In this document: positions 13,613-50,235 of the stretch, piece by piece
Position numbering within the stretch: the stretch's first letter is position 1
Layout: each line of letters begins with the position of its first letter
The notes under the pieces: generated by a model
Seen by the model: the letters and a program-made list of their open reading frames with translations, nothing else
Told to the model about the DNA's origin: nothing
Database searches by the model: none
Source: Escherichia coli
GTDB lineage: Bacteria; Pseudomonadota; Gammaproteobacteria; Enterobacterales; Enterobacteriaceae
Length of the DNA: 64,000 bases
Assembly (NCBI RefSeq): GCF_002854065.1
Contig: NZ_CP024147.1
Direction: 5' to 3' (one strand)
Translations under genes and position numbers: made by a program

Positions 13613-13684
13613 AGCATTCCCCAGGAATAAGTTATGATAATTGAGCGCGTGAATATTACGCTCACTATCAATCCTTGGGAATAA

Positions 13685-14945
<1,261 letters not shown>

Positions 14946-33565: not shown

Positions 33566-33685
33566 TATAACTGAACCCTATAACCGCAACTGCGGTCTGG
33601 AGCACTTTCCAGAAGGATTTTTTCAAATCCCACTACGAAGGCCGAAGTCTTCACAGTATATTTGAAAAAGAACTCTAAGGGAAAG

Positions 33686-33762
<77 letters not shown>

Positions 33763-34019
33763 CCTGAAACGTGGCAAATTCTACTCGTTTTGGGTAAAAA
33801 ATGCAAATACTGCTGGGATTTGGTGTACCGAGACGGGACGTAAAATCTGCAGGCATTATAGTGATCCATGCCACATTTTGTCAACGTTTATTGCTAATCA
33901 CGTGAATGAATATCCAGTTCACTTTCATTTGTTGAATACTTTTGCCTTCTCCTGCTCTCCCTTAAGCGCATTATTTTACAAAAAACACACTAAACTCTTC
34001 CTGTCTCCGATAAAAGATG

Positions 34020-34068
34020 ATTAAATGAAAACTCATTTATTTTGCATAAAAATTCAGTGAGAGCGGAA
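34020..34068 (+). promoter_or_regulatory. candidate ARG boxes (ArgR operator) upstream of argG
   Basis: aatgaaaactcatttatt and tttgcataaaaattcagt resemble the ARG-box consensus TNTGAATWWWWATTCANW; argG is ArgR-regulated. Confidence 0.4.
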
Positions 34069-34094
34069 ATCCAGGCTCATCATCAGTTAATTAA

Positions 34095-35453
<1,359 letters not shown>

Positions 35454-35460
35454 TTCGACA

Positions 35461-37086
35461 TCAACCCTGCCCTTCAGGGGTGGGGTTACCTTGCTTATCC
35501 TCTGTAAACTCCTTTCTGAGCATCACATAATCGAAAACATCATGGTTTGCATCCACAACCCGTGAGTCTCCTTTATAGTGTGCAATCACTTCCTCAAGCG
35601 TTTGCGGCTGTTCCGGCTTTGTTACCCCCATCCACGCATTAATAAGGTAATTATTGTAAGCTGTAGAAAAGATGTTGTTTTCCGTTGTGCGATCCACACC
35701 ATCCCCAAGAACGGGGCTATACCAGATAAACATCGGAACATGATATGCCTGCTGGCTGGCCTCCCTGCCTCCATGAAAATAGACGTTCTTCTTCGTAGGG
35801 TCACGTTCCAGGCCGTGGTCGGCAAAATACATGACCGAGGCGCGGCGATCTTTTAATAATTCAAAAACCTGACCTAGCAAACTATCTGTGTAATGAATGG
35901 AGTTGTCATAGCAGGCATCCTGATCGTCCTGCGGTTGAAACACGGCGCTGGATTGCGGATAGGCGCTACAAGCCGGTTCATGGCTTCCATTTAAATGAAG
36001 AACAATCAGTTTCTTTTGCTGTGTATTTTGCTGTAATGCTTGCGATAAATGCGGCAACAACAATTCATCAAATCCTCTGACATAAACTGTTTCCATGGCG
36101 CGCATGGCGATACTGGTAACTGCTGTACCATTCTGCCGAAAAGCGGATTGCGAACTTAGCCAGAAAGTCTGAAATCCTGCTTGATTAGCCATATTAATAA
36201 TGTTGTCGGGGTAATTATGAATGTCATGGCTCAAAACAGAATCAGCAGTTAAAGAAAGGGGAACCGACAGCGCAGTGTAAGGTGCACCGCTTATTGCTTG
36301 ATTAAACAGTTTGATCTGTTTTCTTTGTGCTTCGATTTGCGGTGTCGTAGAGCGTGTATATCCATACAAAGACATATTGTCGACACGTACAGACTCCCCC
36401 ACAATCAACACGTAGGTATCAATACCTGTATCCCTGACTGATAATTGAAAATACGGCACTGTGTTTGCAATTGAGAGTAATCTTTGATGCTCTTTCGCTG
36501 CTAAAGCAAAATAATTGAGATTGAAAAACGGCGTATAGGTAGCAAATCGCGACGCTAGTATATATGGACTGAACGCATTTTTATTTTTGGCATCTTTATA
36601 AGCAAATTGACAAGCGGAAAATAAACTTCCCGAAATGACAATCAGCAATAATATTCCTGTCACTTTTTTTGTCGGCAAGGAAACATCATATTTTATTATT
36701 ACAGCCAAAAAAAGAAGGGATAAAAAGGCAAAAGCACATAGATAAGGGCTATACATTCCCAGCATTTTGACAACTTCATCCGGATCACTCTGCAGCACAC
36801 TAATCGCAAATCCATCATTGAAAGTTGTACCAAAGGTACACCATGAATAGAGGCTAATACTCATGTCTGCCGCAGTCAGTAACACAAATGGTGCGGCAAC
36901 AAGCAGGCGAAGCGGAAGGGATGATATACGTTTAACAACCAGGATGGTCAGAACGAAGAACAGCAATCGCTGAACCATATGCGCTCCGGAAGAGGCGACT
37001 AAGTTCGTAATACCAAAAACAATAACACTAAGATACAACAACCAATGAGATTTAAAACTTCTAGCAAATTTGTTGAATACTGTCAT
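35461..37086 (-). CDS. yhbX: sulfatase-domain phosphoethanolamine transferase family protein YhbX
   Basis: ATG at 37086 (MTVFNKFARSF...) gives 541 aa; N-terminal membrane segments plus sulfatase domain. Confidence 0.9.
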   Translation of the reverse strand: MTVFNKFARSFKSHWLLYLSVIVFGITNLVASSGAHMVQRLLFFVLTILVVKRISSLPLRLLVAAPFVLLTAADMSISLYSWCTFGTTFNDGFAISVLQSDPDEVVKMLGMYSPYLCAFAFLSLLFLAVIIKYDVSLPTKKVTGILLLIVISGSLFSACQFAYKDAKNKNAFSPYILASRFATYTPFFNLNYFALAAKEHQRLLSIANTVPYFQLSVRDTGIDTYVLIVGESVRVDNMSLYGYTRSTTPQIEAQRKQIKLFNQAISGAPYTALSVPLSLTADSVLSHDIHNYPDNIINMANQAGFQTFWLSSQSAFRQNGTAVTSIAMRAMETVYVRGFDELLLPHLSQALQQNTQQKKLIVLHLNGSHEPACSAYPQSSAVFQPQDDQDACYDNSIHYTDSLLGQVFELLKDRRASVMYFADHGLERDPTKKNVYFHGGREASQQAYHVPMFIWYSPVLGDGVDRTTENNIFSTAYNNYLINAWMGVTKPEQPQTLEEVIAHYKGDSRVVDANHDVFDYVMLRKEFTEDKQGNPTPEGQG

Positions 37087-37504
37087 CCAGAAATCCAAGT
37101 TCACAACCAATATAAACAATTATCAACAATGTGCAATTTTATATCAGACATGTTTTTCAACTCTGATCCATATCAGAACGAAACACTGTTAGTTTTTTCT
37201 TTTTAAATGATGCGGCCATTGCGTTCTCAGTAATTAAATAACATTATCAATGCGTCTCTAAACATTACGCAGAACGTAGCCATCAGTAGTTATACTGACA
37301 GGAGCAGGATGGTTTATCGAGAAGTAAACATATCCGTATTCGTACCGGAACTGGAGTTGACACAATAAAGTGCCAATTATGTCAGCAGTAGGGAAAAGTT
37401 TATAACGAAGGCGTACCGGCAACATCGTTTCAAGGTACCAGCTACGAGTAAAGCAACTGGACGAGATACAGATACCTGACAACCATTCCTCAGACCAGGA
37501 CCAA

Positions 37505-50008: not shown

Positions 50009-50235
50009 TCCCCTCCCCTCATCCCGCGCAGTGCGCGGGATGATTCCAGTAAACTCCATAAGAATACTTATTCAGCGTAATAATGCCTGAAAAACCAGTG
50101 TATACATCTTTATATATTCTGAATATTCACACTCTTTACAGGAACTTTTTAGAGCAATCGGCCATCAGGAGTATAGTGATGCTCGACAGAAGAAGTGTTC
50201 TGAATGAAAGCGACTAACTTAAGGAGTGAGGAAAG

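Follow-up and report, generated by a model that had tools for sequence, protein, structure and literature searches.

A conserved, canonically spaced pair of ARG boxes as the probable ArgR operator of argG in the argG-metY spacer of Escherichia coli

Two ARG boxes separated by 3 bp, at positions 34020 to 34058, very probably form the ArgR operator of Escherichia coli argG and would repress this gene by occluding its promoter. The boxes match the ARG-box consensus, have the canonical spacing, are statistically exceptional as a pair within the window (the whole stretch of DNA that was analyzed, 64,000 nucleotides), lie upstream of an arginine-biosynthesis gene, and are deeply conserved with that gene. 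The ArgR operator of argG is already characterized and is textbook knowledge, and the signal found here is real and far above chance. The original prediction, which had been made from the letters alone, proposed an ArgR operator of argG at this place, and the quality, spacing, and conservation of the pair bear out that interpretation.

Locus and gene context

The region from 33600 to 34200 is 100% identical to that of many complete E. coli genomes, in which it is annotated as argG and tRNA-Met, and it is present in 5425 of 5426 E. coli genomes (601 bp compared). Positions 34000 to 34070 are an exact match to K-12 MG1655, with position 34000 of the window corresponding to position 3318527 of NC_000913.3; in K-12 coordinates the ARG-box pair is 3318547-3318585, the third ARG-like box 3318428-3318445, and the CRP-like site 3318387-3318402. 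The repressor gene argR (b3237) is annotated in K-12, which is identical to the window at the argG operator locus; argR itself lies outside the window. The ATG of argG is at 34110, and the spacer between argG and the divergent metY is 347 bp long, has 63% A+T, and holds the ARG-box pair (Table 1). Beyond metY, on the minus strand, rimP was recognized by its family model and is followed by long open reading frames (ORFs) whose lengths fit nusA and infB. The convergent gene on the downstream side of argG is yhbX (35461 to 37119, minus strand), whose product resembles phosphoethanolamine transferases of the EptA, CptA, and MCR families, with scores below every curated cut-off; the longest ORF, of 552 amino acids, starts from a TTG and exceeds the K-12 annotation by 11 codons.

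Table 1. Coordinates of genes, ARG boxes, and other sequence elements at the argG-metY locus
Feature	Position	Strand	Description
metY, initiator tRNA-Met, divergent neighbor	33686..33762	-	ARAGORN; K-12 annotation metY
Second metY promoter-like site	33778..33807	-	TTTGCA-18-TAGAAT, just upstream of the tRNA; consensus scan
Strong metY promoter-like site	33855..33884	-	TTGACA-18-TATAAT, 12/12; consensus scan
CRP-like site, AGTGATCCATGCCACA	33860..33875	.	Inside the spacer of the strong metY promoter; 2 mismatches to TGTGAN6TCACA
Candidate third, isolated ARG box, CGTGAATGAATATCCAGT	33901..33918	.	3 mismatches; 12.2 bits, PWM rank 4 in the window
Conserved CTCTTCCTGTC (CTCTTCCtGTC)	33995..34005	+	Retained across Enterobacteriaceae, Pectobacterium, Brenneria, and Dickeya
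Candidate extended -10 of the argG promoter, TGaTTAAAT	34018..34026	+	Inferred from conservation
ARG box 1 (promoter-distal), ATTAAATGAAAACTCATT	34020..34037	.	3 mismatches to WNTGAATWWWWATTCANW; 13.3 bits, PWM rank 2
Inter-box spacer, tat	34038..34040	.	3 bp, 21 bp center to center; canonical spacing
ARG box 2 (promoter-proximal), TTTGCATAAAAATTCAGT	34041..34058	.	1 mismatch to WNTGAATWWWWATTCANW; 19.6 bits, PWM rank 1
argG, argininosuccinate synthase, regulated gene	34110..35453	+	447-aa ORF; NCBIfam NF003779, 920.8 bits against a cut-off of 657; annotated argG in E. coli

The ARG-box pair and its statistical support

The window was scanned with the classical ARG-box consensus, WNTGAATWWWWATTCANW, with up to 3 mismatches allowed. 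At this threshold the window holds no excess of lone boxes (7 found and 6.1 expected), so that one match by itself means little. Three places with lone ARG-like matches, at 13676-13693 (the yraQ/yraR junction), 35207-35224 (inside argG), and 50059-50135 (the 3' end of ispB), were rejected as chance occurrences, because the count is at the chance expectation and none of them has a properly spaced strong partner. The pair formed by boxes 1 and 2 is located 52 to 90 bp upstream of the argG ATG, which is the control region of an arginine-regulon gene and is close to the distance of 45 to 90 bp that had been predicted.

For calibration we used the K-12 control regions of carAB, argA, argR, argECBH, argF, argI, and argD, and in each of them we looked for the two 18-mers that, with 2 or 3 bp between them, together came closest to the consensus. 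One pair stands out upstream of each of the seven genes or operons, with 2 to 7 mismatches in total, and the boxes are 3 bp apart in carAB, argA, argECBH, argF, argI, and argD and 2 bp apart in argR. We take these seven pairs to correspond to the published ArgR operators. The argG pair (34020-37, tat, 34041-58) has 4 mismatches in total, which equals carAB and argECBH and is better than argA, argD, and argR.

A strand-symmetrized position weight matrix (PWM) was then built from the 14 boxes of these seven other E. coli arg operators, with argG excluded. Among the approximately 64,000 positions of the 64-kb window, position 34041 holds rank 1 with 19.6 bits and 34020 rank 2 with 13.3 bits, and 33901 comes fourth with 12.2 bits; a PWM scan was the check that had been suggested for the original prediction, and in the correct register it places the two boxes at ranks 1 and 2 rather than among low scores. 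As a pair with a 3-bp spacer, 34020 and 34041 reach 32.9 bits, compared with 17.5 bits for the next-best pair in the window and a maximum of 21.5 bits in 200 simulated 64-kb sequences. Because intergenic DNA is AT-rich, the null was repeated with the composition of the spacer itself. Against this local background the pair scores 25.5 bits, the null maximum is 17.6 bits, and none of 5000 simulations reaches the pair, while the score of box 2 alone is reached by the null maximum in 3 of 5000. Taken alone, box 1 is a weak site, with 9.3 bits against the local background and a site at least as good in 388 of 5000 local simulations; it is therefore convincing only through its spacing to box 2 and its conservation.

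Conservation of the operator with argG

Relatives of ArgG were scanned with one genome per species, giving 80 loci, among which 12 from other Enterobacteriaceae were examined: Citrobacter (two species), Pluralibacter, Kluyvera, Phytobacter, Superficieibacter, Enterobacter (three), Shimwellia, an Escherichia-like species, and strain RIT691. All 12 carry an ARG-box pair with a 3-bp spacer upstream of argG (25.9 to 34.7 bits), and in all 12 metY is divergent from argG. An alignment of the whole spacer showed bins 34013-34052 to be 91 to 98% identical to E. coli and the neighboring bins to be 41 to 70% identical; within this block, the bins that cover box 1 (34013-34042) have 95 to 98% identity across the other Enterobacteriaceae aligned. 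The inter-box spacer is tat or aat in every relative that carries the pair. Within E. coli, the 86-bp segment 33990-34075 was found in 5423 of 5426 genomes, and three sampled variants of the region have substitutions that are all outside the pair.

Pectobacterium, Brenneria, and two Dickeya species also have the pair (32 to 33 bits), at 175 to 309 bp upstream of the argG ATG, and these genomes have no metY near argG. Since the pair has stayed with argG in Pectobacteriaceae that lack a nearby metY, we assign the operator to argG and not to metY.

Upstream of argG in Yersinia, Rahnella, Pasteurellaceae, Acinetobacter, Neisseria, and Bordetella, no canonical pair was detected with this PWM. The Yersinia locus and two Rahnella loci have one good box together with repeated ATATGCAAAATA-like motifs at other spacings, a sequence pattern that suggests a rearranged argG operator in Yersiniaceae. 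Two further observations concern the DNA between the operator and argG. The distance of 175 to 309 bp in the four Pectobacteriaceae loci implies long 5' leaders or extra elements. In several genera a shared insert of at least 30 bp, with the sequence ...ATCATGGCG(G/T)GGCTGTTAAGTCT(C/T)TCACCAT..., separates the operator from the ribosome-binding site of argG (loci L013, L016, L019, and L021), and it is longer in L016 and L019.

The argG promoter and the conserved flanks

The conserved block contains two -10-like hexamers, both of which fall inside the operator. The hexamer TTAAAT (34021-26) is invariant in 13 of 13 Enterobacteriaceae aligned, and in the longer motif GATGnTTAAAT only the n of TGn varies; the alternative hexamer TATTTT (34038-34043) is kept in 12 of the 13. 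Upstream of the pair, the conserved CTCTTCCTGTC includes TTCCTG (33998-34003), 17 bp before TTAAAT, as a candidate weak -35 element. A simple sigma-70 consensus scan returned no plus-strand promoter for argG at the scan thresholds, and the genome-wide transcription start site supplement that was searched has no entry for the argG start site; the overlap of the operator with the promoter is for this reason something that we infer from the conserved -10-like hexamers. Whichever of the two -10 elements is used, ArgR on the pair would be expected to cover it.

It has been described that one arginine-bound ArgR hexamer binds two 18-bp ARG boxes, 3 bp apart, cooperatively, contacting one face of the helix and overlapping promoter elements (PMC6245113; PMC4381063), and that at carAB P2 the binding of RNA polymerase and that of ArgR are mutually exclusive (PMC6245113). 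By analogy, when arginine is abundant a single arginine-loaded ArgR hexamer would bind both argG boxes cooperatively, and the boxes would cover the conserved -10-like elements of the promoter. We propose that ArgR binding excludes RNA polymerase because the boxes cover these elements; polymerase would thus be kept off the argG promoter and the synthesis of argininosuccinate synthase would be repressed. The binding of ArgR, its dependence on arginine, and the exact overlap with the promoter are likely at argG on the basis of this reading and of the literature.

The sequences conserved beyond the boxes call for a second explanation to be weighed. CTCTTCCTGTC and AAAAGATG (34012-19, the conserved 8 bp beyond box 1, which is also kept in Pectobacteriaceae) are conserved as strongly as the ARG boxes, and ArgR does not explain them; they may represent a weak -35 and the TG of an extended -10 (TGnTTAAAT) or else the site of another factor, and the promoter, not ArgR, could account for part of the conservation of the block. 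Taken to its end, this would mean that the block is conserved mainly as the core promoter of argG (extended -10, discriminator, and start site), possibly with the site of another factor, and that ArgR uses essentially only box 2, with box 1 being fortuitous. The weakness of box 1 alone, the reach of the conservation to AAAAGATG and CTCTTCCTGTC, and the resemblance of TGnTTAAAT to an extended -10 all fit such a view. Nevertheless, ArgR operators normally overlap their promoters, and such an overlap does not speak against box 1; every genus has exactly the canonical distance between the two boxes, and the score of the pair is far beyond the null. Known operators also have second boxes of similar weakness, box 2 of argR having 8.6 bits and 5 mismatches, and cooperative binding by the hexamer uses two boxes (PMC6245113). 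We consider it very unlikely that box 1 is fortuitous and retain the two-box ArgR operator. It is a rather doubtful suggestion that AAAAGATG and CTCTTCCTGTC mark an undescribed regulator of argG.

Register of the upstream box

The letters of the two 18-mers named in the original prediction are both present in the sequence. The second, tttgcataaaaattcagt, is exact (34041-34058), and the first, aatgaaaactcatttatt / AATGAAAACTCATTTATT, lies at 34024-34041 and is thus 4 bp out of register, with 4 mismatches to the consensus and 8.9 bits (PWM rank 19). The two boxes had been described as adjacent, which does not hold: the quoted first 18-mer shares base 34041 with the second and leaves no spacer, and the correct partner, 34020-37, is 3 bp away. 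The interval start that had been given, 34020, happens to coincide with the true start of box 1.

An operator as it was first drawn, with abutting or overlapping boxes at 34024-34041 and 34041-58 and the palindrome AATGA-N4-TCATT as its upstream half, has slightly more dyad symmetry in its favor (10 of 18 self-complementary positions, against 8 of 18 in the 34020 register) and carries a TGAAA half-site. Against it stand its 8.9 bits and rank 19 compared with 13.3 bits and rank 2 for 34020, and its start-to-start distance of 17 bp, compared with 20 to 21 bp in the seven other E. coli operators. The relatives settle the register in favor of 34020: Kluyvera, Pectobacterium, Brenneria, and Dickeya have a T at 34027 in place of the G that the TG of the 34024 register needs, and they keep the informative positions of the 34020 register. 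We regard the register as first drawn as extremely unlikely; judged from the sequence, box 1 is 34020-37 rather than 34024-41, and the boxes are separated by a 3-bp spacer and do not abut.

A chance resemblance in AT-rich intergenic DNA without any ArgR function, for which the chance frequency of single boxes and the 63% A+T of the spacer might be cited, has a negligible probability and is effectively refuted by the PWM nulls and the conservation, given that no simulation with the composition of the spacer reaches the pair score, that the pair sits upstream of an arginine-biosynthesis gene, and that the block is near-invariant across the Enterobacteriaceae aligned and moves with argG in Pectobacteriaceae.

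The metY side of the spacer

The ARG boxes had been predicted to lie in a region shared with the divergent metY promoter. This is true in a loose sense: the spacer is common to both genes, but the strong metY promoter is about 135 bp from box 1. The hexamer regions of this promoter are partly conserved in other genera. The two metY promoter-like sites (Table 1) are consistent with the placement of the main promoters of the metY-nusA-infB operon between argG and rimP (PMC6511841).

Matches to the core of the 22-bp CRP site do not exceed chance in the window (20 found and 27.7 expected). The metY-argG pair has been listed among divergent gene pairs with a single CRP site, with no coordinates given (PMC3105977), and the CRP-like core at 33860-75 fits the single CRP site reported to control metY and argG; we provisionally assign that site to these positions. 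In E. coli, CAP is said to activate argG and to inhibit metY from one position, with modulation by ArgR (reportedly Krin et al. 2003, J Bacteriol 185:3139).

A third ARG-like box is found 17 bp beyond the metY -35 element and about 100 bp upstream of the pair. Its local-null p value is approximately 0.02 (111 of 5000 simulations), it shows no conservation in the other Enterobacteriaceae aligned, where the bins that cover it have identities of 0.26 to 0.42, and one E. coli strain has an A-to-G change within it. Citing Krin 2003, PMC4381063 refers in an ambiguous sentence to a further site some 90 bp away from the ARG boxes. A fourth and weaker ARG-like 18-mer, AGCGCATTATTTTACAAA, is located at 33965-33982 between the third box and the pair (11.0 bits, rank 8) and is moderately conserved (bins of 0.46 to 0.62).

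The third box and the CRP-like site may help to couple argG with metY, a possibility suggested in part by the literature. A separate and equally doubtful suggestion concerns the E. coli-specific third box, by way of which one ArgR hexamer might bridge or wrap about 120 bp and so tie the transcription of metY to the arginine supply, as a lineage-specific innovation.

Comparison with known ArgR operators

The operator described here and that of E. coli K-12 are the same DNA base for base (34000-34070), with the same argG/metY gene pair, and both have two ARG boxes 3 bp apart and a distant upstream box, with no detectable difference between them. Footprints of ArgR on the argG operator were reportedly obtained by Charlier et al. 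in 1992 (J Mol Biol 226:367), and arginine-dependent binding of hexameric ArgR and repression of argG by arginine are said to have been reported by Charlier 1992 and Krin 2003. We presume that 34020-34058 agrees with the footprinted operator, also at the level of coordinates. A full-text literature search for the box sequences had as its sole match a paper on a synthetic ArgR consensus decoy.

Box 2 is near-identical to the strict ArgR consensus, TTATTTGCATAAAAATTCATT, which was derived from 31 ArgR sites of RegulonDB (PMC7826281). It also shares 16 of 18 bases with box 1 of the operator by which argR regulates itself, TTTGCATAAAAATTCATC, and each of these two strong boxes is paired with a weaker one. 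The operators differ in arrangement, argR having a 2-bp spacer with the strong box upstream and argG a 3-bp spacer with the strong box downstream. The operators of carAB P2, argF, argI, argECBH, argA, and argD resemble that of argG in consisting of 18-bp imperfect palindromes with a 3-bp spacer, and their pairs have 2 to 5 mismatches in total and lie 55 to 140 bp upstream of the start codon. In contrast to these six, argG comes with a lone third ARG-like box some 100 bp farther upstream and has a spacer in common with the reportedly CRP-controlled promoter of a divergent tRNA gene.

Significance

The finding has little significance beyond annotation. A textbook operator was spotted by a reader from the letters alone, with the typical failure of preferring the most self-symmetric 18-mer over the one that fits the 21-bp register. 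The comparison of genomes makes a modest addition: the pair is near-invariant in Enterobacteriaceae and stays with argG in Pectobacteriaceae, and conservation of the third box does not extend beyond E. coli. For the organism, the published regulatory coupling of argG and metY is based on the position of the operator in a spacer that also holds the reportedly CRP-controlled metY promoter, and the operator is very probably how E. coli switches off argininosuccinate synthase when arginine is plentiful.
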